Assembly: GCF_024521635.1 (NCBI RefSeq)
Contig: NW_026250408.1
Coordinates: forward strand, 124,001 to 188,000
DNA: 64,000 nt
Origin: Tricharina praecox
Lineage: Eukaryota
Direction: 5' to 3'
Of the stretch, positions 9,660 to 46,061 are shown piece by piece. The number at the start of each line of letters is the position of its first letter. Positions within the stretch are counted from its first letter, which is position 1. The notes beneath the pieces are model-generated. The model searched no databases. It was not told the DNA's origin and worked only from the letters and a program-made list of their open reading frames with translations. A program made the translations under genes and the position numbers.

Positions 9660-12600
9660 ATATGGTGTATTTTGGATATTCCAACAGCCGGTGTTGGACT
9701 TGTCACGTGTTGGAAGATTATATCGAAGGCGATCAGAGATGTGAAGTGTATTGCATTGTACCTATTGGTATGTAGTACCCAAGTTACGGGAAGAAGAACT
9801 ATTCTAATATAGACGGCGTGAGGTAGTACCTAGGTAGGTTCCAATCCCTCTGAGCCCAACCCCAGCCCCAGCCACCTCCTGACGTTCGTCTCTCCGCTGT
9901 CTCATATCCTCCGCCTCAGATCCGTCGCCGCCCTGTCTTCAGCAGCGGGCCTGGCAGGCTGCTAGGTAAGTACAAGGCATGTACCTAGCAGTTACCGATA
10001 ATCGACGTCTTTCCTCCTCCGATGCTAGATGTCGAGGTTAGAGAAGGAGCGGACGACAGAGCAGGATCGGAGTAGGCAGGTACTCAACTGGTTCGGATAA
10101 ATGATAAATCCCCGCCACTGGTGAGCGAGGGCATGATATGTAGTGATTATATCGTTGAAGTTGTCGTCGCATTGGATAGTGAAGCGAGAACGCAGCGGCC
10201 AGCAGGTTATATCTGGTGAAGTAGGTTGCGCGGCCTCGCCCACCAGTGACCGTAGCCCAGGCTTATGCCATGCTGGAGTTAGCCTGGTATGGTCAGCGCC
10301 GCTATAGTAAAGACAACGAACTCAGTCCGGCCAGCTAGGTAGGTACTTACACCGTTCTTCGGGCTAGCTGCCCCTCCCGCTTCCCGCCCCGCCCCCCACC
10401 CCGGGACCTCCTGTGTCTGCAGCCGCAGCACCACTGGGGTGCATAATGGGTGTATGGTGCAGGGGCGGGGCGAAGATGGGGAGACTGAAGCGACTGGGTA
10501 GCCGCCCATCTGCGGCCGCCGGCACGCTTGATCAGCGGCAAGTAGTTGTGTTGTGTTGTGTTGTATTATGTTGTATTATGTTGGGTTGTGTTGTGATGTG
10601 AGAGAAGGAAGAAGTGGTAGGTGGGGAAGAAGTGATGGGAGATGAAGACGGTACGAAGAGCGGGTTGTGGGCCGTGAACTGTGGTCCGTATGTGACGTAC
10701 ATCACGATTGTCGAAGACTGTACGAAGGGTAGGGTTGCGGCCCTTCCGCCGAGCTTTTCGAGTAACTATGCCGAGCCTCTACGCCGACTAATCGAATCCA
10801 ATTCCATAATAAAAGTTATAAAACTAGGACGGTCAGCGCCAGTGAGCATAGCAATATAAAAGTACGCAGTGACGGCTTGTTTAGCAGGTTCTCGAGAATT
10901 GGCTTGCCTAGTAGGTACTCTATTCGAGAACGATATCGGCATAATTCACTGATCGCACCGGGCAGTGACGGGTGTAGTAGGTGCTCGACAGGTTCGACGA
11001 TCCGCTGCCAGATGGCCGGAGGGGTTCCTCCCGGCTCGAGTGCTCTCGCGTGCGCCGCCTGTGGGTCTGTCCACCACAGAAGTTAGCCGTTCACATTTTG
11101 ACTACTTACATAATAGTGGACTTCGTTTCCGGTGTCACGGTCGATCGACTCCGTGGACACGATGATGTCAGGAATTGGCGGTGGTGGTGGCGGTGGTGGT
11201 GGCGATATCCGCGCCTGCGTCTTCCGCTTCCTCTCCCTCTACCTCTCCCTCTCCCTCTCCTTGTGCACCCATCGCACTCAAAAATTGCGCTCAACCATCA
11301 CCTTCATCCACTCATCCTCTCCACTCGTCCTTCGATTTTCCGAACGCGCCGAGTAGGTACATACCGGTTGTCAAACTTTACGGCGACGTTTGCACGAATA
11401 TGGTTTGCACGAATAAGGTTCCGCGGTGGACGAGTGAACGGCCGTGGTGGACAGCTGCGACCGAGTGTCGACGAGCACATGATTACGCGGCAAACTTTAC
11501 GCGGCAAACTTTTAGGCGGCACCTCATAGAGTAGAGAGAGGCCTCGCTGCTGATGATACTTTTGCTGTGTCGTATCAACTACCAATGCTCTGTCGTGCTA
11601 TGTATTCGTGTATTCCAGCACTGGCTAACTCAAGCCCATCAACTAACCACCGGCGAGAGAACATCAATTTGTTGCGCACCAAGAACAGACATTCACATGT
11701 CATCGGTCATCATCTCCCTGTACAGGGCACAGCCACAGTATCCTGCTGCGCGCTCATGTTCTGCCTTTCCTCCTCCACCTCCTCCTCTTTAGTGATGCAG
11801 CATATTTACCTCGCCACGCTGCAGCCATGCACGCGAGTGATATCGCATGCAGAACAATACCTACCTTAGTAGATACTCGGGAATCCGGATTTCACCTACG
11901 AGCCCATGTATCGTAGGATACGTAGATACATATTGAGCAGAGCAATAGACAGTGAAACAGTCTATTGATTTATCTCAGCTAAGGCAATGCACATACTCTA
12001 CTACGAATCGCACCGCTACCAACCCTCCAACCCTCCAATCCTTTATATGACACGACTCCTCCACCGACCACCCACCCAAACCCCGAATGAATTCCTCTCA
12101 CCGACCCGCTCACGTCGTCAGTGGACTTCCCTATCACGAGGCTTGTAGAGTCGGCTGTAAGCTGGGGGTATCCGTCCGCATATCGCCAACCCCGCCAACC
12201 CCGCCAACCCGAGAACCATAGCTACTACTACCTAGCACTATAGTGCAATATCCTCAGCCCGCCTACCTCCACCAGTGACCATATCTCATCCGACCGGAAA
12301 GCCGTCCCATGCGCCGTCTCACCCGCCGCACTAGCCAGCGGCCAGCAATCAGGGTGGAACTTTACCTATGGACTTGATGTATTTTCGATATTCTAACAGC
12401 CGGTGCCGGACACGTCACGGGTTGCACGATTATATCAAGGCAATCATAAATGTGAAGTGTATTGTATTGTATTGTAGCAGTATTGGTACATATGTGGTAT
12501 GTTATGGGAAGAGAAACTATTCTAATATTGATGGCACGACAACCGTCAACACGACTTCTCTCCTCCGGTGCTAGATGTAGAGGTTAGAAAAGGAACAGAC

Positions 12601-15600
12601 GACAGATCACAGGATCGGAGTAGGTACTCAACTGGTTCGGATAAATGATAAATCCCCGCCACCAAGGCCCAAGGTCGATTGTGTTACTGAGGATGTTTGT
12701 ATCGTTGTAGTTGTTGTTTTGTTGTGTTAGAAGCGAGAGCGTAGCGGCCCGCAGGTTGTCTGCGGTGTGGGAGGCTGCGCGGCCTCGCCCACCATACCTA
12801 GCCCACTCGTCTGCCCAGGCAGGCGTTCACCTGGTATAGTCAGCGCCGCTATAGTAAACCCGACCAAGCAATCCGGCCAGCTAGGTAGAGGAAACACTTA
12901 CGCCTTTCCTCGCGGGAAGTTCAGTCGGATTGAGGCTCGCGATCGATCTCATGTTTGTATTCGGCCAACGCTCTCGGATAGCTCTCCGAAGTACGCCAGC
13001 TTCGGCCCCCTCAATCCGCAGGATTCTGCGGACACCATTCTCTATTGCATGCCCCAGCCCCCCACCCCCGCGGGAAGCACCGCTGGGATGCGATTTCCCA
13101 GGGCGCAATGGATCGTCGAAATCCATTGGGCGCAGCCTGAGTGGAGCTGGATGAGCTGGAGGAGCAGGAGCAGGAGGAGGAGGATTATGGGGTCGATATA
13201 GACGTGAGGTATTGTTGTAGTTGTATGTAGCTGTCACGGTTGGCGTGGTTGTCGTGATTATGGTGGTCGTAGTTGTCGTAGTTGCCGTGGTCGTATTATT
13301 GTATTGTTGTGTTGTATTATTATGTCCTATCTTTGCTGTTGTAATGTAAAAGATGTGAAAGAAGGAAGGAAGAAGTGGTGGGTAGGGAAGACGGTACGAA
13401 GGGTGGTTTGTGGACCGTGGCCGTGGCCGTGGCCCGTGTGTGACGAACGTCACGAACGTCAAAGACTGTACGGAGGGTAGGGTTGCGGCCCTTCCGCCGA
13501 GCTTCCATGCCGAGGTTCTGCCTCGAGCTTCTATGCCGACTAATCCAATTCAATTCCACAACAAAACCAAGTGCATAGGATCGCAAGAGCCAGAGTGAGC
13601 ATACCAGTACGTGCCGGCTTATCTAGTAGGTACTCGAGAATCGGCGTACATAATCCATTTATCCCACCGGCGGCCGGTGTACCCGATATAGTAGGTTCGG
13701 GGGGATCTGCGGCGCAACGCCTATATACCTACCGTGCATTATCCCAACGCGGCCGTCGGTTCTTACACGGGACCTCCGAATCTCCCAGCATCGTACTCAC
13801 GAGTCACTGTAATGTCATACCTAGCGAGCATGTCTGCGCCGCTTCCCTCAAAGCTTAGAGATCCGACAAGACATGTAACATGTATCCAGGTATCTACATG
13901 GTACATTATCTCCGCAGCACGGGTGATTGTTCATGAGTGGCTCTGTCCAATGTGTAAACTCCAGAGTCCAGACTCCAGAGATCCAACAGGACATGCGACA
14001 CCTCTTTGCAACGCGGGTCATAGTTCATGGTTAGTCTACCATACCTAAGTATGTAGGTACTATATAGATGGGTGGGTAAGTAGCTCTGGGCTGTCGGTGT
14101 TTTGCCATGCGTTCCAGTCACCTGTGTGATATCGTCGTCCTGTACAATGACCACCGCGTTTCCTCCCAACGAGGTCTCTCCTTGTGCACCCATTACACTC
14201 TACTACCGGTAGTACCTTAACCTTCATCCACTCCTCCTCCTTCCACTCCTCCTTCATCCACTCGTCCTCCGATTCCCCGAACGCGGCGAGGCCGGTACCG
14301 GGTTCTCCAACTCAAGCCTACCTACCTCCTACGTAACCTGCCTACACACCGGCTATCAAACTTTAGACGCCCGAAGACGCCCCGAGACGTTTGAACAAAT
14401 AAGGTTTCGTGGTGGACGGTGGACGGTGGACGGTGGACGGGTGGACGGGTGGACGGCCGCGACCGAGTGTCGACGAGCATGTGGTGACGCGGCAAACTTT
14501 AGGCGGCACCTAATTAAGAGGGAGGCATCGCTGCTAATGATACTTTTGCTGTTTCGAATCAATTATCGCTGTCGTTCTATCCGTATGTCACAACACCGGC
14601 CAACTCAAGCCCATCAACTGACCACCGAGCTCTGCCCCGCCAACATCACCAGATATCACTCTCAACCACTCTCTCACTCTGAACCGCAAATCTTCAGTTT
14701 TCTAGATAACGTGAAGCGAAATGAGTTCCATTCCTGTGAGCATCGCCTGCTCCAACTTCCCAGTACGCCCCCCTCTCAGTCTTTTTTGCCTAGCTCCCCA
14801 GCCCTTCTCTGTTTCTTTGTACCTTGCCTTCAGCCTTCCACGCTCCATCCCCCCGCGCCACCCTGCAGGCCAATGTCGCCAATCCCCCCAATGCCCCCCC
14901 CCGGGGACCTCCTATATCCGCGGCCACCATGTACTAGTATCCGGCAGCGATAGAGTTTCCGTGGTGGCCGCGGCCCGCAGCACCACTAGGGTGCATATTG
15001 GGCATCTGGTGCGGCCTTCTCCAACTCATTGTTCGGATTCGGATTCGGGCAAAGTGTTTTGGTAAAGTTGCAAAAAGATCTTGGATCCATTGGCACTTTT
15101 TTTTTATTAAAAAAAGACACCGTCAGCATTGAGAGTCCTGTACAGCCTGCAGGAGCATTGAGGGTGTCGGGTAGTTAATGTGTCGCGGGGTATAGGCCGG
15201 AAAGTCAGGAAATCATGAACTTACGTTGGTATCCTCGCGCGCACTATGCACCGGACCTCCGCGAGCTCTTTCATCAGCTTCTTGGTGACGCTGGTTTTCG
15301 TTGTTGTTGACCTGGTTGTTGTTATTGTTTTGTTGTTTTATTATTGTTTTATTATGTTGTATTATTGCTGTTATGTGATGTGAAAGGAAGAAGAAGTGTG
15401 GATGGGGAAGACAGTACGAAAAGTGGTTTGTGGACCGTGGACCGTGGACCGCGGACCGTGGCCCGTGGCCCGTATATGACGAACGTCACGAACGTCGAAG
15501 ACTGTACGAAGAGTAGGGTTGCGGCCCTTCTGCCGAGCTTCTACGCCGAGCTTCTACGCCGGCTAATCGAATTTCATAATAAAAAAAGGACCGTCAGCGC

Positions 15601-18300
15601 CAGAGTGAGCATAGAAGTACGCAATGCCGGCTTGACAAACTACAGAGTCGAGAATCGGCGTACTTGATAGGTTCGACGATCCGCTGCTGATCCAGCCACT
15701 CTGCATACACATATCACATCACATCACATACAGAGGCCGAGAGCCGTGTGCATACGTCTGTAGAGTAGCTGGGGATCCACCTGACTCGAGTGCTCCCACA
15801 TGAGCCGCCTGTGGGTCTGTCTACGATAGAGGTTCGCCGTTCGCGAATTGACTACACAATAGTGGACATTGCTTCCGGTGTTGCGGTCCATGGACTCCGT
15901 GACTCCATGATATCGCGAATTGGGGGTGGCGGTGGTGGTGGCGATATCCGCGCCTGTATATCCCTCTTCCTCGCCGTCTCCCTCTACCTCTTCCTTTCCC
16001 TCTCCCACTCCTTGTGCACCCATCGCACTCAACAATTTCAACCTTCACCTCCATTCACTCGTCCTCCAATTCTCCCAACGCGGCGAGTGCGGTACCGGTT
16101 ACTCTAACTCCAACTCAAGCCTACCTACCACCTCCATACCGGCCGTCAAACTTTAGCCGCCCGGAGACGTTTGCACGAATAAAGTTGCACGAATAAGGTT
16201 CCACGGTGGACGAGTGGACGGCCACGACCGAGTGTTGACGAGCATATGGTTACGAACATATGATTACGAGCATATGGTTACGTGGCAAACGTTAGGCGGC
16301 ACCTCACACAGGTAGAGAGAGGCCTCGCTACTGATGGTACTTTTGCTTTGTCGAATCAATCATCTCTGTCGTTCTATCCGTATATTTCAACACTGGCTAA
16401 CTCAAGCCCATCAACTGATCACCGAGCTCAACCACGCCAACGTCACCGAAAATCACTCTCAACCACTCTGAACCGCATAATCTTCAACTTTCAACAACGG
16501 GAAGCATAGTCTAGATACCTAGGCTGCATGCGAAATAAACTGAAGATCTCTCTCTCTCTCAACAACGGGAAGCGAAATGAATTGCATTCCATTCCTGTGT
16601 ACGCCACCTGCTCCAGCTGCCCAGCACATCCCCGCTCGTATCGAGGGCGAGGATGGACTGAATATTCGCCCGCCGTCGCCGTGTATGTGCAGTGAAGGAT
16701 TGCTGGTACTGGTACTTATGGATGTGATGAATGCAATATTCCAATACCTAGTGTTGGACATGTCACGTGTTGGAAGATTACATCAAGAGCGATCAGGGAT
16801 GCGAAGTGTAATGTACTTATTGTATTGGTATGCTGGTATGCTGTATTATGGGAAGAAGGACTATTCTAATATAGACTGCGTGACCACCCCCAACATGACT
16901 TCTCTCCTCCGGTGCTAGATGTAGAGGTTAGACAAGTCGCGGACGACAGATCATAGGATCAGAGAAGGCAGGTACTCAACTGGTCGGATAAATTATAAAT
17001 CTCCGCCACCAAGGCCCAAGGGCTGTGTTGTGGATGTCATAGTTGAGTGCAGACCCTTACGGTCGTTACGGGGGTCCCACATTCCCTGGAACTGCGCGAA
17101 GTGCTTGAGGAACGTCGGGTCGGTAAAGAGAATGTCGTGTAGCAGCCGTCTTCGTCGACATGGTGGTTTCTTTGGTGCCGCGGGGTGGCATCGTGGCGTG
17201 AGGTGCGCTGTGCGAAAGGCTTTCGGATGTGTGTTGGTGGTTGGTTTCGGGAGACGTTGGAATTGGGTTTCCAGCTCTGGCTCATGCCCAGGCTGGCCGT
17301 CACCTAGTATGGTCAGCACCGGTATTGTAAACACAGCCAACTCAGTCCGGCCAGCTAAGTACTTACGCCTTTCGTCGGGCCCGCAGCCCCCCCCGGGGAC
17401 CTCCTATGCTCCCGGCCGCAACACCACCGTGGTGGATATTGGCTGTGATGTGCGGCCTTCCCCATCTCATTGGTCGGATGACTCCGACCAATGAGATGGA
17501 GAAGGCGGAAGGTGGAGGGGCAGGGCGAAGAGGTAGGGCGAGAAGCGAAAGGATATCCGCCCGCCCATCGGCGGCCTGCTTGATCAGCGGCAAAAGGTTG
17601 TGCTGTTGTGTTGTTGTATTGATAAGTTGTGTTGTGTTGTGATGTGAAAGACGGAAGAAGTGATGTGAAAGGAAGAAGAAGTGGTGGGAGGGGAAGACGG
17701 TGGGAAGGGTGGGTTGTGGACCGTGGACCGTGGCCCGTATGTGACGAACGTCACGAACGTCGAAGAATGTACGAATGGTAGGGTTGCGGCCCTTGTGCCG
17801 AGCTTCTACGCCGAGCTTCCGCGCCGACTAATCCAATTGAATTCCACCATAAAAGTTATAAAACTAGGACCGCCATAGCCAGAGTTAGTGAGCATAGAAG
17901 TACGTATACGCAGTGCCGGCCTGCCTACCTAGTACCTACTCGAGAATCTGCGTGCTTGACAGGTTCGGCCCCGGGGATCCGATCCGCCGCAGATCCAGCC
18001 ACTCTGCATGCATGCACTTCACTTCCGGTGGTGCGGCCGGTGTACTATATAGACTCCAATGTCCGGCGCGAATTGGCAGTGGCGGTGGCGGTGGTGGTGG
18101 GGATATGATATATCCGGTTCTACATATGATTCTCCCTCTTCCTCTCCGTCTTCCTCTCGTTGTGCAACCATCGCACTGAGCCTTCTCATTGGACACAATC
18201 TTCACCTCCGCCATCCGCACATCGTCCATCGTCCATCCTCCATCCGCCCCGAGTCTGGTATTACTACCGACGTACCGTACCGGCCAATCCAAAGCTCAAT
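9660..18300 (+). repeat. Left array of 4 degenerate modular repeat units (~2.0-2.8 kb)
   Basis: Core GTGACGAACGTCAC..GAAGGGTAGGGTTGCGGCCCTTCCGCCGAGC (with substitutions) at ~10724, 13472, 15508, 17773, plus shared flanking modules. Limits approximate. Confidence 0.9.
12517..13300 (-). pseudogene. Degenerate 3-exon gene-like unit within repeat unit L2
   Basis: Open exon ...PMDFDDPLRPGK...IRERWPNTNMRSIASLNPTEL, intron GTAAGT..GCTGAC..CAG (~12901-12831), second intron ..CTAAC..TAG, last exon HRRREVVLTVVVPSILE* (12570-12517). No clean ATG, and exon 2 has stops. Confidence 0.45.
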
Positions 18301-18559
18301 CCTACCAGCTACATACCCAGTAGGCAGAGAAAGATGTCAGGACTCTACTCTTGGGTGGCGGTGGTGGAGGTGGATTGATGTACCCATTACCCACCTACGG
18401 TATACAGCTACAGAACTGTGGGATCGAACATGGCTCATCACCCGATATCATAGCTATTTACAGGTACTTGTGTCTGCCACTCGGGTCTCTAGAGATTGTC
18501 CACGGCCAGTACATACACTCATAACTCATTCGACAACATACATCGCCAATATACATCCC

Positions 18560-20114
18560 CTACTCAACCCCAATAGCCTGCGGATTCCAAAACCGCATCT
18601 CAGGATCAACCCTCCTCTTAATGCTCAGGAGCCTCTCATACTTCTCACCATAATACAACCCATGCGCCACCTCCGCGCTGTACGTGGGATCGACATAATT
18701 CGGGTAGGCCATAAACTGTGTCTCGCCCTGGGGCTCTGTAATACTCCTTGACAGCGCGTCCATAAACTCGATGCCCTCAGCGGGATACGGCCCCGTCTGC
18801 GCCACATCCGAGATGGAGTACAGCTGCAGCGTGAAGAACGCGGTTCTGCCCGCGTAGCTGGCGCCCTCCGCGTCCCCGTTACTGATCCGCGAGTTCGCGC
18901 CACCGTATAAGTCGGCGATGACCCACCACGGCACCGGCGCATCGGTAGCATCCGCGACGAAGCCGAAGAAGCTCGCCAGACTCGCATTCCCCAGCGCTTC
19001 CGGCGTTACCACGCTCTTTGCAAAAAACGTGCCGTGCTCAGTGTACTCCTTCGGCTGCGGCAGCTGCCCGCCGTTATTAAACGACACCAGCGCGTCGAGG
19101 TACGGCAGCTCCTGGACGCCGTGCACGGTATCTGCCGGCCACGCGGCGAGCAGCGGCGCGATGGTGCTGTCGAACCCTGCGCGGGACCCCCAGAACACGC
19201 CAGAGACGAAGAATTGCGGCCCGAGCTCAATAGCGGGAGTGCGCAGGAACAGGCGCACGGCGAGGTTCGACGGCGCGGAGTGGGCGAAGCCCTGGGTGGC
19301 GGCAAAGATGGCCGCTTGTGCGCCCGGGGAGGTGGAGGAAGGGAAGGTGTAGTTGTATACCACGCCGTTGACGGGCGCCGCGAAGGTGCGGAAGCGGAAG
19401 GACGTGACGAGGCCGAAGGAGGAGCCTGCCCCGCGCAACGCCCAGAATAGGTCCGCGTGCTGCGTGGAGGAGACGCGCCGGAAGGTTCCGTTCGCAAGGA
19501 CTACGTCTAGCGACAGGATCGTGTCCAGTGTTGTCCCCCACATCCGACTGGTGAAGCCGAAGCCGCCGTGGAGGGCATGGCCAGAAATACCAACCCTATA
19601 CCAGTCAACCCAGCCCACCCCCCCATCCCCGCACTGCAGTAGGTACTCACCCAGGACACAACCCATGAGGCAATGCCCTCCCTGCACTCTCAAACAAATA
19701 CGTCGCAATATCGCCCAACCTCCTCCCCGCCCCAACAGTCGCCACCTGGGTCTCCGCATCCACCTCCAGCGTCCGAAAGCGTTTCATATCGACAACCAGC
19801 GAGCCATTTTGTCCACCCAGTCCAAACGCAGCATAACTATGGCCGCCAGAGCGCGCGGCAACTTTTGCGCCGTAGTGGCCTGCGCAGACGACGGCCGCCG
19901 AGACTTGCAAGACTGTGGTGGGGACCGCGAGCGCCACGGGCACGTAGGGGAGGCGCAGGTTGAACGGGAGGATTGCGGTGGTGAAGTTGCCGGCGGAGGC
20001 GGGGGAGGAGGAGGAGGGCGTGAGGACTGGCACTGAGGCGGCGAGGAGGCATTCTGGCAGTGTGGTGTGCGCCGCGGCGGAGGCGAGGAACACAAGCTGC
20101 AGTAGGAGACGCAT
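18560..20114 (-). CDS. Secreted FAD-linked oxidoreductase, AA7/BBE-like (oligosaccharide oxidase family); intron ~19596-19650
   Basis: Signal peptide MRLLLQLVFLASAAA, ARSGGHSY (His-FAD), HGLCPG|VGISGHALHGGFG (Cys-FAD), and C-terminal BBE motif YPNYVD..YYGEKYERLLSIKRRVDP. Confidence 0.92.
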
Positions 20115-20773
20115 GGCGAGATGGCGATACGAAACGTGGGGAGTCCGTAACCAGGTCGCTGGATGTGGCTCGTTAAGTACCTGTCCGAGGTGATCAGGCA
20201 GAATCAGTGCGGAAAGTCGGAAGGCGAGATCAGCCTGCTATACAGTAGTAGATGGGATGTATGTGCATATCGTATTTATGTCGTGACGTTCGCATTCTCC
20301 TCATACATAGCAGTCGGCTGAGTTCCATCCCGCAGTCGGTTGTCTCTCTCTAAATGCCCCTGACTTACTTTGCTGTATGTATGTATGGTACTCTAGAGTC
20401 TAGATAGTACTTATACCCGGGATCCGGAGAGCTTCCCCATGGGGCGGGTAGCCGGCCACAGTTCCTCCGGCCGATTGGTTGAGGAAGGTCGGTCGGTCGG
20501 ACTCATCGCAGTATGCAGCTTTCGTTATTTGCTTTTTTCATTCCGCGGTGCCGTACCGTAGAGACTCCATGCAGCACGCCTACGCGTCGTCCAACGTCAA
20601 TGAGCACCCACAAAAGTACGCCCCGCGCGAGTGCCTTCCCATGACTGCACCGGATATGTAGGCCGGATAGAATTTCCCTTTATTCGCACGCAAGCAACCA
20701 ACGCCTAACTCCACGCACCTCGCAATCCCCCTCTACCATCTAGCCACCCTCTACCCCTCCCGCTCCCACGCAT

Positions 20774-23544: not shown

Positions 23545-23597
23545 CAAACACCACAAACACAACAAACACAACAAACACAACAAACACAACAAACACG
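23545..23597. repeat. (ACAAACACA)n microsatellite
   Basis: Directly visible. Confidence 0.8.
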
Positions 23598-23951
23598 ACG
23601 AACGACGAACGGCGAATGACGACGTAGAGTAAAAGGGGCGCAATGCAACGCCCGCTCCGTAGGTGAGTATTAAGTCCGCCGACAAGCAAGCAAGCTATGG
23701 TAAAGAACAAGAAGGATAGAATAGGATAGGATAATAACAGTGTAAGAAGTAAGTACGGTACTGTCGTATGTACACCGACCGGGCGGATGTATGAGTGTAT
23801 GAGTGTATGTACTTAGGGTAGGAAGTAGGTAGGCTCGCAATAAAGTATGTGTGTGTGTGCAGACACGCACCCGCCCGCTTTCACCACCGCCGCATGTCTA
23901 AGGTAATAGAAAGAGAAAGAAGAATAAAAACGACGAACGATGGGTATAATG

Positions 23952-24011
23952 CCTCCCTCCCTCCCTCCCTCCCTCCCTCCCTCCCTCCCTCCCTTCCTCC
24001 CTCCCTCCCTC
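23952..24011. repeat. (CCTC)n microsatellite
   Basis: Directly visible. Confidence 0.85.
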
Positions 24012-24085
24012 CAGAACCCGCGAAAGGAACCGAAAAGAATATAAACGCCCAGCCCCTGCAGGCAGTGTACCGGTGGTAGTGGCGG

Positions 24086-28481: not shown

Positions 28482-28537
28482 GGACTGGGCGAATGGGACT
28501 GGGCGAATGGGACTGGGCGAATGGGACTGGGCGAATG
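28482..28537. repeat. 14-bp tandem repeat (GGACTGGGCGAATG) x4
   Basis: Directly visible. Confidence 0.85.
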
Positions 28538-31076: not shown

Positions 31077-31138
31077 CTGAGAGTCTGAGAGTCTGAGAGT
31101 CTGAGAGTCTGAGAGTCTGAGAGTCTGAGAGTCTGAGA
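31077..31138. repeat. (CTGAGAGT)n microsatellite
   Basis: Directly visible, ~7 units. Confidence 0.85.
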
Positions 31139-33628: not shown

Positions 33629-35004
33629 ATGTCCAACTTCCGTCCAACACGTCCCACATCGTCTCCCGAATGGCGGCCGAGGACACATGTTTCCTTCCGG
33701 ATGTGTGCTACCCTTCCAAGTTCCAATTCAGCTGCGAGGGCGGGGGCGGGGGAGGCGGACATGTACTGACGGGCGTAGAACCTTACCGCCATCTACTTAT
33801 GCCAGCACCATCGACGTCGTCGGATCGTGGGATAACTTTAGCACTGCCATGCCGCTGGAGCAGGATAGGCGCGTTGGCCGCGATGTCTGGAAGGCCATCT
33901 TGACGCTCAATGGAGGCCTCGAGATGGGGAGTGAGCATTTTTATTATGTGCGTGCCCTACATCCGGAGTGGACACTCTCCCCCGGGTACCGACCCACGCG
34001 AGTGTACTGACCCGTGCGTGCGGATAATTAGTTCTTGCTGGACCGGAAAAATGTCATGCCCGATCCGCAATCGCTACCATCGTCGCTAGCGGTACATCCA
34101 CGCACCGGCCGGTTAATGTCGACGTTGTTCGTCCCGGTCGAGTTGCCGCCGACGCCGGAGCCGGCGGTCAAGTTTGCGCAACAACAGCAGGTGGAGCGGT
34201 CGGATACTCCGGTTTCGTCGATGGGTACCATCGGCTCGTCGGTGTTTGCTGATTTCGATGGAGACGGTGATGATACTTTCATGCAAGCGTTCGTGCAGCC
34301 GAATCCGCAGCAACCACGGCATATCGAGAACAACAACAACAGCGGCAGGAAAGGCAACACCTTCCGGGAGCGATTAAGGGCGCGTAGGAGCTCCCTTGCA
34401 TCGCCAGGCCAGGAGGAGGAACAGCCCAAGCCCAAGCGACGGCGGGGATGGGGACTGCAGCTCAGCGTATCGACCGCATTACTCCGGATGGGCTACCGCA
34501 CCCCCGCCTCGGACGGACTGGAGTCGAAAGAGGATCTGCAATCGCCACCGCGCCGCGACGAGGACGCCATCGCCGACATCGTCGGCTACCTCCGCAGCAA
34601 CGACGCCGCCACACCCAAGGCATCGCAGTACATCCTCCCCATGCCCACCACGCACCCCCACTCGACCGCGTCATCGGTGTACTCGCAGAACCCCGACCGC
34701 CCCAGCCTAAGCCCGAGCCCGGGAATGTACAGCTCCTTCTACAGCAGCGAGGACGACGAGGACGAGCTCGCTACGCCTGTCGATGTCGCGTTTCCGAAAT
34801 ACTACAACTTTGATGAGCTGAAAGGCGCCGACGCGGGATTGGTTCAGGGTAAGGCGCGCGCAACCTCTCCCCGTAGTGGTGGTGGTGGTGGTGGTGGGGG
34901 CAGTGCCGTCGCTAGAGTGTCTGCGCGAACAGGTCGTCGGCGAGATGGCGTGGCAAAGGGAGATTGTCGGGGAGCATGGGTACCTCGGGAGTGTGGTCGT
35001 TTGA
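33629..35004 (+). CDS. CBM48/AMPK-beta-like glycogen-binding domain protein with long disordered C-terminus; exons ~33629-33702, 33779-33947, 34032 onward
   Basis: Spliced N-terminus THVSFRITLPPSTYASTIDVVGSWDNFSTAMPLEQD...GLEMGSEHFYY|FLLD matches CBM48. The C-terminus EIVGEHGYLGSVVV* needs a small intron (~34849-34903) or an indel; otherwise the ORF ends at 35063. Confidence 0.75.
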
Positions 35005-38000
35005 AGTTTGCTTCCTTTGTCGGCCTCTTGTGCGGGAATATAGACGGTTTCGGTTGTCGATGATTTGCGCTTGCGTTTCAGTTTGTTTTGCGACTGTTTT
35101 GCACTGTTTTGCACATATGCGGGATTCTTCCCTTTCCCTTTCTCTTTCTGCTTCGGTCACTGAAATCACATCACTCTGCTCGGCTTTTTTCCTTTTTCTT
35201 TTTCTTTTCACTTTTCTCTCGATCATGGCATTTTTTAGCTGTTATTTTCCTTTCTCATGGGGGCATTGAAGATTGCATTGGAGGGGTTTCGTTCACTACT
35301 ATCTTACTGACTTACTGGCTTACTTGCACATACGCACATCATACATGGACATTCATACACGGTCACGGCAACGGTCGTTCTGGGAGTTTTATTCTTTTTC
35401 TTTCTTTTTTCTTCGCTTTTTTCTTTTCAGGGGGGATTTTCTTTTTGCTCGTTTGGGGCTTTCCTTTTTCTTTCTTTCGGGTGGGTGGGTTTGGGGGTTG
35501 GGCATTGTGGGGACAATGGGCTGGGTTGGGCTGCAGGGGAACGGGGGGTGGTGATGGAGCGTGGAAGCCTGGAAGCCTGGAAGCACGGTAAAAGTGATGG
35601 AAAAGTGCTGGGAAGCAAGGCAAAACGGACGGAGAGGGGGAAGAAGAAGTGCTGGGAAGCTGGAAAGCTGGAGCAGGCGGTGTCGTAGGAATGGAATTCA
35701 TTTCACTTCCCGTTCTTGGGAGTTAAAGATTTTGCAGTTCGAAGTGAGAGAGTGAGTGATGCTTAGTGATGCTTCTTGACGTTGGCGGGGTTGGCGGGGC
35801 TGAGATCGGTGGTTACAGTAGGCTTGAGTTGGCCAGTTTTGAGATACCTATACGGATAGAACGACAGCGATACTTGATTCCATAGATACAGCAAAATTAT
35901 CATCAATAGCGAGAGCTCTCTCTACCGAAGGAGTATGAAGGTTTGCCGCGTAAAGTTTGCCGCGTAACCACATGCTCGTCGACACTCGGTCGCGGCCGTC
36001 CACCCGTCCATCAATCCACCACGGAAGCTTATTCGTGCAACCTTATTCGTGCAAACTTCGCCGGGTGGGTAAAGTTTGATAGCCGGTATATACCTACTCG
36101 GCGCGTTTAGAGGATCGGAGGACGAGTAGATGGAGGTGAAGGTTGGAGGTCAAGATTGAGCGCAATTGTTGAGCGTGATGGGTGCACAAGGGGAGGGAGA
36201 GGAAGAGGGATACAAGCACGGATATCGCCACCATTCATAGATTCGACGGAGTCCATGGACCGCACCGGAAGCGAAGTCCACTGTTAAGTATGTAGTGAAT
36301 TTGTGAACGGCGAACTTCTGTGGTGGACAGTCCCACAGGCGGCTCATGTGGGAGCACTCGAGTCGGGTGGAACCCCTGCAGCAGTTACGGCTACGGCTAT
36401 GGACCGGCTACATCTACATCTACAGCTATCTTCTTCCTTGTATACGTCACGCTCTACTACACGGCTCAAGGCTTTTGGATGTGATCTAATGTGATGTGTG
36501 CAGAGTGGCTGGCTGGCCATCTACCAGCGGATCGTCGAACTTGTCGAGTACTTGCAGAGTGCAGAATGGCTGGCCATCTGGCAGCGGATCTTCGAAATTG
36601 TCGGGTACCTACAACCTACTACACCCGTCACTTCCCGGTGGGATCAGTGGATTACGCCCATATCGTTCTCGAGTATCTACCGGGCAAGCCGATTCTCGAG
36701 TACCTACTTGGCTAGCCAGCACTGCGTAATTCTATACTTCTATACTTCTATACTCACTCTAGCACTGACGGTCCTAGTTTTATTGTGGAATTCGATTAGG
36801 TAGTCGGCGTAGATGCTCGATTAGTCGGCGTGGAAGCTCGGCGGAAGGGCCGCAACCCTACCCTTCGTACAGTCTTGGACGTTCGTGAAGTTCGTCACAT
36901 ACGGGCCACCGTCCACGGTCCACAAACCACCCTTTGTACCGTCTTCCTCTCCCATCACTTCTTCCTTCCTTCTTCACTTCACTTCACAATAGCAAAGATA
37001 CGACACAGAAATACAACATAACAATAATACAACCACGACAACTACGACTACGACCACCATAATCACTACAACCACGCCAACCGTGACAACTACATACGAC
37101 AATTACAATAATACCTCACGTCTATATGGACCTCATAATTCACCTCCTCCTCCTGCTCTTCCAGCGCCTCCAGCGCCACTCGGGTGGCGCGCATTGGATC
37201 TCAATGAGCCATTGCGCCCTGGGAAATCACATCCCAGCCGTGCTACCCGGGGAGGGGGGCAAGGGGCAAGCAATAGAGAATGGTGTCCCCAGAATCCTGC
37301 GGATTGGTGGGCCGAAGCTGGCATACTTCGAAGAGCTATCCGAGAGCGTCGGCCGAATACAGACATGAGATCGATCGCGAGCCTCAATCCGACTGAACTT
37401 CTCGCAAAGAAACGAAGAAAGACGTAAGTATGTTCTCTACCTAGCTGGCCGGATTGCTTGGTCGTGTTTACTATAGCGGTGCTGACTATAATAGGTGAGC
37501 GCCTGCCTGAGCATGAGCTAGTGCTGGGTGTGGCGGGGCGGTACAGCCGCCCTCACCACGTACTACCTGCCAGCTGCCGCTGCTTCCTTGAGCAACTCAA
37601 TAAAACAACAACCGGATATTCAGCCCATCTTCGCCCTCGATGCGAACGGGAATGTACCAGGGGGCTCGAGCAGGTAGCGTACATAGGAATGGAATGGAAT
37701 TCGTTTCACCTCCCGTTGTTCTTGAAGGTTGGAGCTTTTCTGGTTCGTAGTGAGAGTATGAGTGATATATGGTGACGTTGGTGACGTTGGCGGGGCTGAG
37801 ATATGCGGTTAGAACGACAGCGATAATTGATTCGATACTGCAAAACTATCACCTGCAGCGAGGCCTCTCTTTAGAGTATATGAGGTTCCGCCAGAACTTT
37901 GCCGCGTAACCATGTGCTCGTCGATACTCGGTCGCGGCCGTCCACCCGTCCACCGCGGAACCTTATTCGTGCAACCTTATTCGTGCAACCTTGTTCGTGC

Positions 38001-40711
38001 AACCTTATTCGTGCAAACGACTCCGGACGTCTAGAGTTTGATAACGGTATGTAGGTGGAGGTGAAGGATGAGCGTGATTGTTGGGTGCGATGGGTACTAG
38101 GAGATGGGGAGGAGAGAGAGATGGAGAGGAAGAGGGATATCGCCACTACCAGCATCACCGCCAATTGGCGATATCAAGGATTCCATAGACTGCACAACCG
38201 GAAGCGAAGTCCATTAACAGTCAATTCGTGAACGTCGAACCTCTGTGGTAGACAGACCCACAGGCGGATCATGTGAGCGCACTCGCGTCAAATGGAACCC
38301 GCCAGCTGTTACGGATACGGCTATGGACGGGCTATATCTACAACTGTCTTCTTGTGTACGTGAAGCTCTGCTCTACATGACTCCCGGCGTTTGGATGTGT
38401 TGTGATGTGATGAGTGCACGTAGAGTGGCTGGATCCGTAGCGGATCCCCCGAACCTGTTGAGTAGGTACAGCGGCCACCGGTGACCGGTCACCGGTGGGG
38501 AGTGGATTACACCGATATCGTTCTCGCGTACCTACCAGGCATGCCAATTCTCGAGTTAAGCAAGGCGGTACTGCGTAATTCTATACTTCTATAGTATGCT
38601 CACTTTGCCTCTGTCTCGCTCTGGCGGTCCTAGTTTTATAACTTCTATTATGGAATTTAATTGGATTGAATTAGTCGGCGTAGAAGCTTGGCATAGTTAC
38701 CCTAAAAGCTCGGCGGAAGGGCCGCAACCCTACCTTTCGTACAGTCTTCAACGTCCGTCACATACGGTCCACGGTCCACGGTCCACCCTTCGTACCGTCT
38801 TCCTCTCCCACCACTTCTTCCTTCCTTCTTTCACATCACTTCTTTCTTTCACATCACAACAGAACACAACGTATGCAACATAAAAATACAACCACGACAA
38901 CTACGACTATCATATGACTGCCTTACGACAACACGACAACCGCGACAACCTCGATAGCCGCGATGATCCGCGGGGCTGCAGCGATTAGCACCGCCCCCGG
39001 CGGTGGTATCGAGTTACCCAAACCACTTGATTTCAACCCCAACTTTCCTGCTTCAAGCGCCGGGGGAGAGACCCTACCTCCAGTGATTGGAGCCGGGCAA
39101 ACATATCACCCCACATCCACCACCTCCCCCCCTTCCTCCACCTACTAGCACCCCCGAACCACCCGGGCCGCGCCCAATGGATCTCAACGATCAATTGCGC
39201 TCTAGGAACCTGTATTCCAGAGGTGCTTCCCGGGTGGGCAGGGGAGGGGGAGGAGAGAGAGCATGCGAGAGGGGGGCTGCTGGCCCCGGCCGCAGAAAGA
39301 TGTAAGTACTCTACATGTCTGAACGGATTGCTTTGGTTGTATCCACTAGGTATAGTGGCGCTGACTGGGGGTTCTTGATAGGTATGGGGAGGCCTCGCAG
39401 CCATCGTTATTATCCACCACCTGCCGGCTGCCGCTGCTGCCTCCTTGAGCAACACATTAAAACAACAACTACAACTATACAACCATCATCAAAAACCCTT
39501 AGGCCTTGGTGGCGGAGATTTAACATTTATCGTTTATCCGAACCAGTTGAGTACCTACCTTCTCCGGTCCTGTGATCTGTTGTCTGTTCTTTGTCTAACC
39601 TTGACACACAGCATCGGAGGAGAGAGGTCATGTTGGCGGTAGTCACGCTGGCTATATTAGAATAGTTATTTTTCCCATAATATTGCATACATACCAATAT
39701 AATACATTACAATGCAATACACTTCACTTCTCTGATCGCCTGTGATGTAATCTTCCCACATGTCCAATAATAGCTAGCTATCGGATCATGATCGCAAATA
39801 CATCACATCCATAAGTACCAGTAGCAACAATCCTCCACTGCACATGCACGGCGACGGTGAACGGAGATTCAGTCAATCCTCGCCCTCGATGCGAGCCTGG
39901 ATATGCTTGGGGGCTTGAACAGGTGGCGTACATAGGAATGGAATAGAATTCATTTCGCTTCCCGTTCTTGAGGGTTGAAGGTTTTCCAGTTCGGAGTGAA
40001 TCAGAGTGATATCCGGTGATGTTGGCGGGTTGAGCTCGGTGGTTACGGAGCCAGTGTTGAGATATACGAATAGAACGACGGAGATAATTGACTAGCCCCG
40101 GCAAAAGTATCATCAGCAGGGAGGCTTCTCTCCACAGTATACGAGGTGCCGCGTAAAGTTTGCCACGTAAAGTTTGCCGTGTAACCATATGCTCGTCGAC
40201 ACTCGGTCGCGGCCGTCCACCGCGGAACTTCCACCGCAGAACCTTATTGGTGCCACCTTATTCGTGCAAACGTCTCCGGACGGGATAAGTTTCATAGCCA
40301 GTATGGAGGTGGGTAGGTAGGTGGGTTTGGGTTGGAGTTGGAGTAACCGGTACCTACCGGACTCGGAGCGTTTGGAGAATCGGAGAATCGGAGGACGAAT
40401 GGATGAAGGTCGAGTGGAGAGGAGGAGTGGATGGAGGCGAAGGTTGAGCGCAATTGTTGAGCGCTATGGGGGCACAAGGAGAGGGAGAGGAAGAGGGAGA
40501 GGAAGAGGGGTATGCAGGCGCGGATACCGCCGCTACCACCACCGCCACCGCCAATTGGCGATATCATGGAGTCGACGGGGTCGATAGACCGCACCACCGG
40601 AAGCGAAGTCCACTGTTGTGCAGTCAATTCACGAACGTCGAACTTTTAGAGATCCCACTCGATTCCACTGGCGGCTCATCTGGGAGCACTCGAGTCGGGT
40701 GGAACCCCCAG

Positions 40712-40954
40712 TGTTGAGAATATAGGTGTGAGATGATATTATTCGGTTGCTTGATTCATTCGCAGAACACAGTGGATGACCAGCTAGACATACCCGACAG
40801 TAAAGCAGAACAAGCAGCAAGTATGAGAATAAACAAGTTTCTCGCGGCGCACTCGAGGAGGCGCAAAACATGGCGCATATGACCAATGACAAATGTGTAC
40901 TATCTTGGACGAGTGACAACGGTGGCCTTTCAGCCAGAACCGAAAATCGCAACA
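40712..40954. mobile_element. Solo LTR (243 bp) with 5-bp TSD CCCAG
   Basis: CCCAG|TGTTGAGAAT...AATCGCAACA|CCCAG. The sister repeat unit at ~36370 (GGAACCCCTGCAGCAG) lacks the insert. Confidence 0.85.
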
Positions 40955-43246
40955 CCCAGCAGCAGCCGCGGTTTTGAGTAGACAGGCTACATCCATCTAC
41001 AACTGTCTTCTTGTACGATACTTACCTTATACACGGCTATCGGCGTTTAAATGTGATGTGCAGAGTACAGAGTGGCTGCCCGGATCGTCGAAATTGTCGA
41101 GTACCTACACCGGTGGCCGGTGGGTGGGATAGGTGGATTACGCCGATATCGTTATCGAGTACCTACCAGGCAGGCCGATTCTCGCGGTAGGTACGCCGGT
41201 ACGTCTATACTTCTATACTTCTATGCTCACTTTGGTGCTGACGGTCCTAGTTTTATTGTGGAATTGGACTTGATTAGTCGGCGTAGAAGCTCGGCGCAAG
41301 GGTCGTAACCCTACCCTTCGTACAGTCTTCGTCACCCACGATCCACGGTCCACGGCCCACAACCAACCCTTCGTACCGTCTTCCCCACCCACCACTTCTT
41401 TCTCCTTTCACATCACTTCTTCCTTCTTTCACATCACAACACAACCCAACTTAATACAACTTAATACAATACAACAACACAACTATTTGCCGCTGTTCAA
41501 GCAGGCCGCCGATGGACGGGCGGCAATGGACGCTGATTCCCCAGATGGAAGAGGCCACCAGTCGATCAGCTCGATCCTGAACAACAATCATGCCGGCACC
41601 ACTGGTGAGGATGTTCCCATCGAGTCGAGTCTACTCGCTCTTGGGATTGTTAACAGTGCCGAATTGACCCCGGACCCGGATATACTTTCGCTCTCGCTGC
41701 TCCATCTTCGCCCTGCCCCTTTACCTTCTCCATCTCATTGCCCGGATCCAACTCCGACCAATGAGATGGAGAAGGACGCACATGACACCCAAGATCTACC
41801 ACGGTGGTGCTGCGAGCCGCGACCACCATCGCCAGGCAATCGCTGGCGGATACATGGCGGCCGCGGACACAGGAGGTCCCCCAGGGGGTCCCCCAGGGGG
41901 TGGAGGAGTGGGGGGTGGAGGGGGGGCCCCAGCTCCCTCCCTCCCCGTTCACTCCCTTACTTTCTACTTCGCATTTCGGCTTGTCACACGCTTCCACCGA
42001 CAACCTACAGGTATTTACAGTCCATCTCCCCCTACCACTTTCTCTCCACCTGCTAGCCCGACGAAAGGTATAAGTACCTAGCTGTCCGGGCTGAGTTGGC
42101 TGTGTTTACTATAGCGGTGCTGACACGGACGCCTGGAAGCAGCAGCTGCAGTTCACCTCAAGCCGAGCAGGTTCCTTCTACGCGGGATATCATCGAAGAA
42201 GTCACGATGATTCCCGCAACTTCCTTTCGACGCCGTTTGATGATGGCCGTTGCTATCATGTTTGCTGTATCTACGGATTGCTCGGGATCAGCGACGAAAA
42301 CGGAATCCGGCTGCTACACGACATTCTATTCACCGACCCAACGTTCGTGAAGCACTTCGCCCAGTTCCAGGGCATGTGGGAGCACCGGAACGACCGCAAG
42401 AGTCAGCATTCAACGATGATATCCCACACATAGCCCTTGGGCCATGGTGGCAGAGATTTATCATTTATCCGAACCAGTTGAGTACCTACCTTCTTCGATC
42501 CTATGATCTGTCGTCCGCGACTTGTCTAACCTCTTCATCCAGCACCGGAGGAGAGAAGTCAGGTTCGCGGTGGTCGCGCCGTCGATATTAGAATAGTTCC
42601 TCTTCCCGTAGTAATACTGCATACATACCAATATAATACATTACAGTTAAATTCTCTGATCGCCTGTGATGTAATCTTCCAACAAGTCTACCATTAGCGA
42701 TGGGAAAATCACATGCATAAGTACTAGGTAGTACCAGCAATCATCCACTGCACATGCACAGCAAATATGGACGCAAATTCCGTCCATCCTCGCCCTCGAA
42801 GCGAGCAGGCATGTGAAAAAGTATTTGACTGTGGGATGAGTGGTTGGTCGATGAAGGAATCATGCCAGATAAAGGGCTGGAGGGTAAGTAGTGGCACGAT
42901 CTTTGATAGTAGAGTGTGTAAATTGCTCTATCTAGCTGGAACAAATCATTACTGCACGTAGTTTTATCTGTTCAACAGGTACCTATCTATCTTACGGTGC
43001 ATGGGTACACAGGTGAAAGTCGGTTTTCCGACTATTGTTCAGATCTGCATACGATATCACTCACGCACATTGCTGCAGCGAGGTGGGGTAAATATCGAAA
43101 CACTTGTGAGCGAAGGTTAGGAAGGAGACAAAGAGAAGGAAAGAGAGGTGGTCCACAGCGGAGGTGTTCGCGGATGAGTGGTGCAGCGATGCAATTCTAC
43201 AGTTCCTTGCAACGCCGGATATGGGGAGGAAACCTTCGCCAGGCCT

Positions 43247-43293
43247 GGAGGAGGAGGAGGAGGAGGAGGAGGAGGAGGAGGAGGAGGAGGAGG
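43247..43293. repeat. (GAG)n microsatellite
   Basis: Directly visible. Confidence 0.85.
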
Positions 43294-43432
43294 AAAGCAT
43301 CGCATCGGGGGTAGATCATGAGTGCTTAGCAGGATACCGTGTCTGCATCTTGTGCAGGGAGGTGAGGGGCGACGAAATGTGATTGTCTGTTCTTGGTGCA
43401 AAAAAAATTGATGTTCCCTCTATCTCTCTCTA

Positions 43433-43780
43433 GATGATACTCTCATGCAAGCGTTTGAGCAGCCTCGTCCGCAGCAACCACGGCATATCAAGAACAACAA
43501 CAAAAACAGCAGGAAAGGCAGCACCTTCCGGGAACGATTAAGGGCGCGTAGGAGCTCCCTTGCTTCGCCGGGCCCAGAGGAGGAATAGCCCAAGCCCAAG
43601 AAACGGCGGGGATGGGGCCTCCAGCTCAGCGTATTGACGACGATCCTCCATATGGGCTACCGCACCCCGGCCTCGGACGGATTGGAGTCGAAAGAGGATC
43701 TGCAATCGCCACCGCGCTGCGACGAGGACGCGATCGCCGACATCGTCGGCTACCTCCGCAGCAACGACGCCGCCACACCC
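43433..43780 (+). pseudogene. 348-bp duplicated internal fragment of the CBM48 gene (source 34269-34616)
   Basis: Colinear copy including MGYRTPASDGLESKEDLQSPPR.DEDAIADIVGYLRSNDAATP, with a CAG>TAG nonsense change at ~43586. Confidence 0.92.
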
Positions 43781-46061
43781 GGAGCACGTGGCTGGATCTA
43801 CAGACTACAGCGGATCCCCCGAACCTGTCGACTCTCGAGTATCACCAGCCGCCGGTGGGATAAGTGGATTGCGCCAATCGATTCTCGAGTACTACGCAAG
43901 CTGGCACTGCGTACTTCTATACTTCTATACCCACTCTGCCTCTGTCTCTCGCTCTGGCGGTCCTATTTCTGTAATTTGTATTGTGGAATTCGATTGGATT
44001 AGTCGGCGTAGAGCCTCGGCGTGCATAGAAGCTCGGCGGGAGGGCCGCAACCCTACCCTTCGTACAGCCTTCGACGTGTGTGACATTCGTCACACACGGT
44101 CCACGGTCCACGGTCCACCTCCTACTCTTCGTACCGTCTTCCTCACCCGCCACCTCTTCCTTCTTTCACATTACAACACGATAATACAACATAATAAAAC
44201 AATAATAAAGCAAGAAAACAACAGCAATTAGCGCTACAACAACGAAAACCAGCGTCACTAAGAAGTTGAAGAAGGAGCTCCCGAAGGTCCAGTGCATAGT
44301 GTGCGTGATGATACCTCCGTAAGTTCCTGACTTCCTGACTTTCGGCTTATACCTGCGACACATTCATTACCCGACACCCTCAATGCTCCCTCCTCCACAG
44401 GACTCTCAATGCTGATGCTGACGGGTCGCCTCTGGAACAAAGTGCGGAGGTCACGGATCTAACAAGCCGTAATCGAGACTACCAATCGTCGGAAGATCGC
44501 AGAAAAAAGAGTATGGTGGGATCAAGTTGGGAAGACGCAAAGTATGTTTGAGAGTGTTGGGCTTTTGTGAGATCGGGGTTTAGTTTTCAGTCTTGGCCTG
44601 TTTTCAAAGTACGACCGGATCAGAGATCTTTTTACAGCTGATATCTCGGCCTCAAATTTCATGCTTGAAGCATTGGAGGAGAGAAGTCCAACACTCCCTA
44701 CATAGCTACATAGCTATTGGAGCTTCGCAAACACATCACCCCACAACTACCGCCTCCTCCTCCAGCTCCTCCAGCTCCAGTCGGACCGCGCCCAATGGAT
44801 CACAACGATCCATTGCACTCTGGCAACTTACATTCCAGCGGTGCTTCCCAGGCGGGGGGGGGGAGCGACATCATATGGGGGGCTGCTAGCCTCGGCTGCA
44901 GAATGGCGTAAGTACATCCTCTACCCAGCTGGCCGAACTGCTTTGGATGTATTTCCTATAGCGGCGCTGACCATACCGACTGCCAGATGAACGCCTGTCT
45001 GGGCATAAGCCCGCATCAGGGAAAAAAAATCCGTTGGGTGCGTGTAGACGGTCCTGACTCTGGTAACGCTGGGAATGTCCTCGAGCTATTGCATAGAGTG
45101 AATGCCTAGTTATTTCCAGTATGAACGACCAATTCCCAAGGCTGGGCTATGATGGAGGAGGCCGCGCAGCCTCCCTCACCGTAGACGACCTGCCGGCCGC
45201 TGCGTTCTCGCTGCACAACACAATAAAACAACTACGACCATACAATCATCCTCAATAACACAATGGGCCTTGGGCCTTGGTGGCGGAGATTTATCATTTA
45301 TCCGAACCAGTTGAGTACCTATCTACTCCGATCCTATGATCTGTTGCCCGCTTCTTCTCTAACATCTACACCCAGCACCGGAGGAGAGAAGTCATGTTGG
45401 CGGTAGTCGCGCCGTCTATATTCGAATAGGTACCTAGTTCTTATTCCCATAACATGCTACATACATACCCATACAATAGAATACACTTCAAATCTCTGAT
45501 CACCTTTGATATAATTTTTCAATAAGTCCACCACCAGCTATTGGGTGGAGGTAGGCCGGCTGATGATGGAGGACTACGGTAAGGTGATAGCTAGGTATGG
45601 CTGGTATTGGCACAACTCGGAGTATAGTATGTACACTTCCGTAGCTAAGACAAATCTTTATTGCAGGTATTTTGATCTGTTAAATAGTTACCCATCTATC
45701 CTACGATGCCTGGGTATGCAAGTGTAATCCGGATTCCCGAGTATTGCTCTGCATGAGATATCAGTCACGCGCATGGACCACCACTGGCACCGATTTCTTG
45801 TAGTGCACCTTACGGACGGGACTTTTAGAATCCCATCCGGTAGGGAGGTAGGTAGATCCACTGAAAAACCCTCCGACGGAGTGTGGTATATCTCCACGAT
45901 GGATCTATCCCCTCTTTTGAGTTGTGGAGCCGAGAGTCAATGCTAGAAATCATCATTTCCCCAACCAGCTAATATCGAACGGTGAACCCCACCGCCGATG
46001 AGCATCCCCAACCATAAGTTCCCGAGAGCTTCAGGCTGCCTCTATGTACGGCTGGAAGCAA

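Follow-up and report, generated by a model that had tools for sequence, protein, structure and literature searches.

In this study, we analyzed 64,000 nucleotides of Tricharina praecox DNA (NCBI RefSeq assembly GCF_024521635.1, contig NW_026250408.1, positions 124,001 to 188,000 of the forward strand; hereafter the window, with coordinates counted from its first letter), and found that two oppositely oriented arrays of a diverged, non-coding 2-3 kb repeat surround a 17-kb gene block. Repeat search, self-BLASTN and core alignment revealed four units in the plus-strand array (9663-18249) and four units plus a tail remnant in the minus-strand array (35494-45776), both oriented toward the central block (18250-35493) and together occupying 29% of the window. 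The arrays are a decayed non-coding tandem repeat with kilobase-sized units, that is, a macrosatellite. The reading we favored, with about even confidence, is that this macrosatellite was split by one inversion. The units, numbered separately for the left (L) and right (R) arrays, and the block they enclose are as follows:

9663-12370, plus strand: L1, full length, with head, pre-core, core, post-core and tail
12371-14890, plus strand: L2, nearest relative R1, with a private segment at 13704-14175
14891-16700, plus strand: L3, without head modules
16701-18249, plus strand: L4, nearest relative R3, breaking off inside the post-core at approximately L1-equivalent 11350
18250-35493, no strand: enclosed single-copy block with AA7/BBE and nicotianamine synthase (NAS)-like genes, open reading frames (ORFs) lacking Pfam matches and a weak CBM48-like gene
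35494-37724, minus strand: R1, without head modules
37725-39769, minus strand: R2, from self-BLASTN and module comparison
39770-42699, minus strand: R3, nearest relative L4, from self-BLASTN and module comparison
42700-45598, minus strand: R4, with a copy of a gene tail in place of the post-core module
45599-45776, minus strand: R5 remnant, tail module only, 67.5% identical to L1 11825-12024

The modules always followed the same order (head, pre-core, core, post-core, tail), with individual modules variably missing, and the core was the sole module found in all eight units. An earlier sequence-only reading of the window had described such ordered but variably deleted modules and had placed the core four times on each strand; module comparison confirmed the former, and its core positions were correct. 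The best-kept 39-nt word of the core was recovered with at most three mismatches in seven of the eight units and never in 100 shuffles, while the eighth copy, in L4, was evident in the alignment of the eight cores. Its positions are as follows:

10718-10756, 13466-13504, 15502-15540 and approximately 17767-17805, plus strand: 39-nt core word, found by word search and in L4 by alignment
36834-36872, 38706-38744, 41287-41325 and 44029-44067, minus strand: the same word in the right array, found by word search

Start-to-start spacing of units was 2036-2931 nt in the repeat search, and the tail-to-head junctions were homologous between units. Self-BLASTN found no unit modules in the remaining 45 kb except one weak match of 97 nt, and a 26-nt core word had no exact match in the prokaryote collection.

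The repeat is real and old. Aligned pieces of units were 66-88% identical in pairwise comparisons, and pairs chained over all aligned pieces were 68-79% identical. The longest exact match between units was 44-45 nt, a GGA microsatellite excepted, and the longest exact inverted match between the arrays was 44 nt. Thus, an assembly artefact in which repeats were collapsed or misjoined is very unlikely, almost to the point of being negligible, as units differing by 12-34%, with many indels and no longer exact matches, argue against it. For the same 44-nt limit, inversion of the central block through the inverted homology, which had been suggested previously, is unlikely today. We also asked how the copies diverged. 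Over 24,823 aligned positions there were 2141 transitions versus 1934 transversions (ratio 1.1), and the TpA/ApT and (CpA+TpG)/(ApC+GpT) indices of the arrays were similar to those of the flanks. Because of this balance and these flank-like indices, the divergence cannot be attributed to repeat-induced point mutation (RIP), and a RIP-degraded repeat was rejected.

The units are non-coding and encode no protein. None of the 148 stop-to-stop array ORFs of at least 65 aa reached the Pfam cut-off (best E 0.016, to unrelated families), and transposase, reverse transcriptase, helicase, Rep/Hel and gag/pol domains were all absent among them, in agreement with the previous impression that no transposase, reverse transcriptase or helicase ORF is present. 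The widest family among 205 ATG-initiated ORFs of at least 20 aa spanned three of the eight units. Spacings between neighboring mismatches, taken modulo 3, numbered 810, 1517 and 1041 for remainders 0, 1 and 2, respectively, which shows no codon periodicity, the value for 0 being the lowest; moreover, indels were not multiples of three, and lengths of 13, 14 and others were frequent. A birth-and-death gene array, as considered in the sequence-only reading, was therefore rejected, since no ORF was found in more than three of the eight units and substitutions showed no codon-like pattern. Small-peptide genes, for pheromones or otherwise, were rejected as well because small ORFs were common to at most three units. 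For structured RNA, no Rfam family reached its gathering score in the arrays, where the sub-threshold matches were hairpins scored as animal microRNAs, and RNAalifold predicted 29 pairs for the eight cores, none of them (0/29) compensatory in a core that offers little variation. A structured RNA gene family found no support, as neither an Rfam match nor compensatory pairs were present. In addition, a profile of one core reading frame had no match among 1.84 billion protein representatives, which is weak evidence for a lack of relatives.

The relationships among units bear on the history of the layout. Maximum-likelihood trees of the core (eight units), post-core (six units) and head (six units) were star-like, with left and right units interleaved and internal support mostly weak. 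Summed BLASTN scores between the arrays were as follows:

L2-R1: 1191 bits, the best pair, 79% identical over 1493 nt
L4-R3: 1024 bits, the second pair, 78% identical
L1-R4: 742 bits, a mirror pair
L2-R3: 645 bits, a mirror pair
L4-R1: 332 bits, a mirror pair
L3-R2: 294 bits, a mirror pair

The resemblances of L2 to R1 and of L4 to R3 had both been recognized before, and so had the point that the arrays are not a simple mirror, all mirror pairs scoring below these two. Two further resemblances held in part. That of L3 to the start of R4 was found locally (15123-15585 versus 44415-43975, 79%) but not beyond; that of the 11.85-12.3 kb spacer to 45.55-45.78 kb was weak and confined to 11.85-12.0 versus 45.6-45.78 kb (67.5% over 200 nt). 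In terms of order, L3-L4 was colinear with R4-R3, and L1-L2 with R2-R1. The star-like, interleaved trees and the best pairs crossing between arrays indicate one burst before the arrays separated; the trees and pair scores together show that the arrays neither expanded independently nor are plain mirror copies of each other.

One past inversion is our preferred explanation of the layout. First, unequal crossing-over or replication slippage would have multiplied a promoter-like intergenic segment of approximately 2.7-2.9 kb into head-to-tail copies within one short burst, and the copies would have escaped RIP mutation by the host genome. In this undivided array, L3-L4 and R4-R3 would have been adjacent copies of a two-unit block. 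Second, a single inversion would have split the array, with one breakpoint inside the unit that is now L4 plus the R5 remnant and the other beyond the AA7 gene, so that the halves came to face each other around the 17-kb block. The mid-unit stop of L4 (approximately L1-equivalent 11350) and the R5 tail (from 11825 onward) were complementary and non-overlapping, with approximately 0.5 kb lost between them. Changes specific to single units after separation comprised substitutions, differing numbers of 7- and 14-nt motifs, missing modules and short inserted gene fragments, a decay that we attribute to slippage, deletion and repair with filler DNA. On the whole, a decayed tandem duplication followed by inversion looks like a better fit than an active mobile element.

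Several points weigh against this history. Chance alone gives roughly even odds of so complementary a truncation in L4 and R5, and the 0.5 kb of unit missing at the proposed breakpoint must be reckoned with. The undivided order would be (L1 L2)(L3 L4)(R4 R3)(R2 R1), that is, types ab-cd-cd-ab, which needs more than one duplication step. Confinement to a single locus was seen within the 64-kb window; across the whole genome the unit may still be a dispersed family and hence a transposon. TG behind a purine tract in all eight units, taken with the promoter-like core, resembles the beginning of a retroelement long terminal repeat (LTR). Moreover, a compact fungal genome would not be expected to retain approximately 19 kb of apparently useless DNA at about 25% divergence, and the clustered conservation could indicate that the units do something. 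The layout might also have arisen with no inversion at all, through palindromic amplification, in which an array that had diversified beforehand underwent inverted segmental duplication. Such an origin would agree with a unique spacer bracketed by inverted homology and with the interleaving of L and R units in the trees, yet the mirror pairs, at 742, 645, 294 and 332 bits, were below L2-R1 and L4-R3, and no L-R pair was clearly younger than the pairs within arrays; we considered it rather unlikely.

With regard to unit anatomy, the segment looks promoter-like from its motif content. An internal direct repeat in the core, approximately 30 nt in length, surrounds a palindromic GACGAACGTC-type site; TATA-like boxes lay 60-100 nt downstream, followed further on by a run of GGT resembling Gly codons and a CT-rich tract. 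A CACGTG box and a short hairpin were located in the head. The copy number of the tandem 7- and 14-nt motifs (2-6) varied by unit. The inverted-repeat search added one palindrome:

17455-17506 (L4), no strand: palindrome with 24-nt arms and a CCAAT/ATTGG box in each arm; its R3 homologue is at 41724-41775

Invariant alignment columns were clustered. The best 40-column window of the core held 31 invariant columns, a value equaled in 26 of 5000 column shuffles, and that of the post-core held 32 (1 of 5000). These low-divergence islands suggest that some cis-elements were once, or still are, constrained. Each unit might accordingly be a selected non-coding element, either a non-coding RNA gene with its own promoter or a cluster of sites that regulate or insulate the block. 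Besides the clustering, the 39-nt core, which totaled only eight mismatches to the query (L1/R1 sequence) over seven matching units compared with 66-88% identity elsewhere, and the palindromic sites, CCAAT palindromes, TATA-like boxes and CT tract would be in line with this. However, several units miss whole modules, constraint is modest (exact sharing by four to five units extended to just two words of 16 nt or longer), no Rfam family or covariation was found, and the single-frame core profile, weak as that evidence is, matched nothing. We think that the arrays have no dedicated function today, and we regard a working element as highly doubtful. As a separate observation, the word GTAGGTAC or its complement, which is similar to a fungal 5' splice-site word, occurred 17 times in the arrays (9600-18250 and 35494-45776) versus four times elsewhere in the window.

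The resemblance to an LTR was examined in its own right. All eight units carried, just 5' of the core, a run of 15-19 purines with TG directly behind it, so that each unit has a polypurine tract immediately before a block beginning with TG:

10600 (10600-10614), 13357, 15382 and 17667, plus strand: purine tract, then TG, in the left array
44167, 41409, 38832 and 36975, minus strand: starts of purine tract, then TG, in the right array

In five of the eight units, the reverse complement of the first bases after the tract was present approximately 300-340 nt downstream (TCCCACC versus GGTGGGA), and the base next to this candidate LTR end was G rather than A. The units could in principle be a non-autonomous LTR retroelement, LARD-like (large retrotransposon derivative) or TRIM-like (terminal-repeat retrotransposon in miniature), arranged as LTR-internal-LTR-internal, with the core as the promoter part of U3. 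In addition to the tract before TG and the GGTGGGA/TCCCACC pairing, TATA-like boxes lying between these two words and the core being the only module shared by every unit would support such a structure. No canonical CA end, adjacent TGG-initiated primer-binding site or target-site duplication was identified at the candidate LTR; tRNA-Trp of the window, the sole tRNA compared, had no complementary site in the arrays beyond one 12-mer with two mismatches; there was no gag/pol remnant; and both arrays start and finish in modules that would be internal. Furthermore, purine- and CT-rich tracts are frequent across the whole window. We regard an LTR retroelement as quite unlikely.

Fragments of genes within the units provided another line of evidence. 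A 260-aa ORF of R3 had one match in the protein search, P0001 (256 aa), with E 8e-15, and the similarity traced to an insertion private to R3; a second fragment, in R4, was copied from the tail of a neighboring gene:

41523-41675, plus strand: 153-bp insertion private to R3, 51 codons, 84% identical to P0001 residues 146-195
43433-43780, plus strand: neighboring-gene tail copy in R4, 348 bp, 90.5% identical to its parent at 34269-34616

In the alignment, the site of the R3 insertion was uninterrupted in L4 and L1, and the parent gene was not found in the window. P0001 had nothing above the Pfam cut-off; its N-terminal LYHKLHGVHRP, which we take to resemble the end of a GATA zinc finger, was not confirmed by that search. 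The R4 copy had the orientation of its parent, showed a stop codon in place of a Gln of the parent, and occupied the post-core module site. Among longer proteins, the range searched, the neighboring-gene tail ORF had no match. A perfect (GGA)16 microsatellite (43247-43294) inside R4 adjoins the gene-tail copy. Thirteen further unit-private segments (70-472 bp) were present in the arrays, and tblastx and blastn gave only low-complexity matches between them and the rest of the window. As neither of these two gene fragments occurs in more than a single unit, their insertion followed amplification, and we infer that they represent filler DNA from double-strand-break repair and not mobile-element cargo. 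A module found only in L4 (16984-17153) and R3 (42303-42472), 85% identical, contained an antisense protein-like stretch in both units (…LLHDILFTDPTF.KHFAQFQGMW…). This module may be an older captured gene fragment, and an Atlas search with the corresponding ORF (42095-42430) gave no usable match.

Another candidate origin of the unit is a DNA transposon of non-autonomous type, whether Helitron, Helentron or pack-type, that would have spread by tandem insertion or replication and taken up pieces of host genes. The sequence-only reading had offered a locally amplifying Helitron or pack-type element, of which the local modular amplification and the presence of gene fragments within units stood. 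Non-coding units, star-like trees as after a burst, and two host gene fragments within units are compatible with such an element, and three tandem Helitron copies are reported in Metarhizium acridum (PMC5148889). Pezizomycotina Helitrons are described as having an asymmetric terminal inverted repeat and as ending in either TCAG-hairpin/ATTTT or TGCCT/CTCCTGT (PMC5148889). At several tail-to-head junctions of the arrays, ...TGTATTT(T) precedes a short hairpin, a pattern that loosely recalls FoHeli1/2, with ATTTT at the 3' end and a hairpin at the 5' end. However, homology of the left edge extended approximately 25 nt upstream of the ATTTT junction, and since it continues through the junction, the latter is not an insertion boundary. 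We scanned each unit on each strand for a hairpin plus CTRR, the 3' counterpart of the 5' TC in canonical Helitrons, a scan that did not include the FoHeli end words themselves. There were 0-4 candidates per unit per strand, and any position was common to at most two units.

No inverted repeats bounded the units, the 17 and 31 inverted pairs within 3.5 kb being all low-complexity or internal. A terminal-inverted-repeat (TIR) transposon, a miniature inverted-repeat transposable element (MITE) or a Pack-MULE found no support because no inverted repeats lie at unit boundaries. On the part of the earlier proposal that did not stand, terminal inverted repeats and homologous hairpin-plus-CTRR ends were lacking, and the fragments were unit-private. 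Each was in one of the eight units and not in all descendants of a capturing element. Rep/Hel or transposase domains were absent from all 148 ORFs, and no copy was detected outside the arrays within 64 kb. A DNA transposon thus appears decidedly improbable. A literature search found nothing on arrays of tandem Helitrons that contain pieces of genes in filamentous fungi. A further possibility is that the unit belongs to an undescribed non-autonomous element of filamentous fungi, likeliest retroelement-like, with a purine tract before TG and a terminal block bearing a promoter, which would multiply in tandem at one locus, serve as a landing site for host gene fragments and use the conserved 40-nt core as the cis-site for its mobilizing machinery; this we would regard as unlikely.

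Base composition, the encoded proteins and a single tRNA-Trp gene give the window the look of filamentous-fungal DNA. G+C content was 0.50-0.61, and long exons identified by Pfam corresponded to a P-type ATPase, an MFS sugar transporter, a GH127 glycosidase, a BBE/FAD oxidase and a nicotianamine-synthase-like protein. Among the genes previously assigned to the central block, AA7/BBE and NAS were supported by Pfam, but CBM48 was sub-threshold:

18560-20237, minus strand: AA7/BBE oxidase, by Pfam
20774-22314, minus strand: nicotianamine-synthase-like gene, by Pfam
33555-34007, plus strand: exon-like ORF of a CBM48-like gene that ends at 35063; AMPK1_CBM sub-threshold, E 0.12, 13 bits versus a cut-off of 26.8

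Between 22.3 and 35 kb, the central block was mostly devoid of Pfam matches and rich in simple repeats, and it contained a 48-nt minisatellite at 26653-26815 (3.4 copies, 98% matches). A tRNA-Trp(CCA) gene at 8505-8577 on the plus strand is located approximately 1.1 kb outside the left array edge, a proximity that may or may not be meaningful, for instance through a retroelement that targets tRNA genes. Beyond the right array, approximately 9 kb (45800-55200) were gene-poor, with no ORF of at least 90 aa having a Pfam match at E 0.001 before the MFS transporter at approximately 54953, and included a short direct repeat (50036-50129 and 50468-50564). A separate inverted pair (52451-52672 and 57891-58107) of approximately 220 nt represents another small repeat family that is unrelated to the arrays; its two copies were 77% identical, and in both of them every frame was interrupted by stops.

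If the favored history is true, the locus is a record of a fungal region reshaped by a RIP-escaping tandem burst, one inversion and slow decay with templated gene-fragment insertions. It could then serve as a marker when synteny and inversions are studied in relatives, and it would offer a small inventory of repair scars. The arrays do not point to a new biological system; they would be of greater importance if the unit were a dispersed unnamed element, or if the cores were bound or transcribed.

A literature search returned no relevant fungal macrosatellite, and a 17-nt core word was not in any paper. The arrays were compared with four kinds of known systems. First, macrosatellites are tandem segmental duplications with kilobase-sized units, such as the human D4Z4-type arrays. 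The present units resemble them in being head-to-tail, 2-3 kb in length, local rather than dispersed in the sequence examined and probably produced by unequal exchange, and differ from the D4Z4 type in being old and diverged (66-88% identical), unhomogenized and ORF-less, in lying in a fungal-type genome and in forming two inverted halves. Second, Helitron2-like elements of Pezizomycotina likewise include non-coding derivatives, carry host gene fragments and have been reported as tandem copies (PMC5148889), but unlike these elements the arrays have neither a Rep/Hel domain nor consistently placed hairpin-plus-CTRR ends, and their fragments are unit-private. Third, the purine tract and TG in each unit, the promoter-like block and the non-coding "internal" part of approximately 2 kb recall LARD elements. 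The same features are similar to TRIM elements (PMC6934838). In contrast to both, no TG...CA ends, primer-binding site or target-site duplication were found, and the arrays are not LTR-terminated.

Finally, centromeres of the fission-yeast type consist of inverted repeat arrays around a central core. Here too, oppositely oriented kilobase arrays surround a central domain, whereas that domain of 17 kb holds ordinary genes (AA7, NAS) at a G+C content of 0.50-0.61 and the units are not mirror-ordered. A centromere-like layout was rejected on the basis of gene content and G+C.

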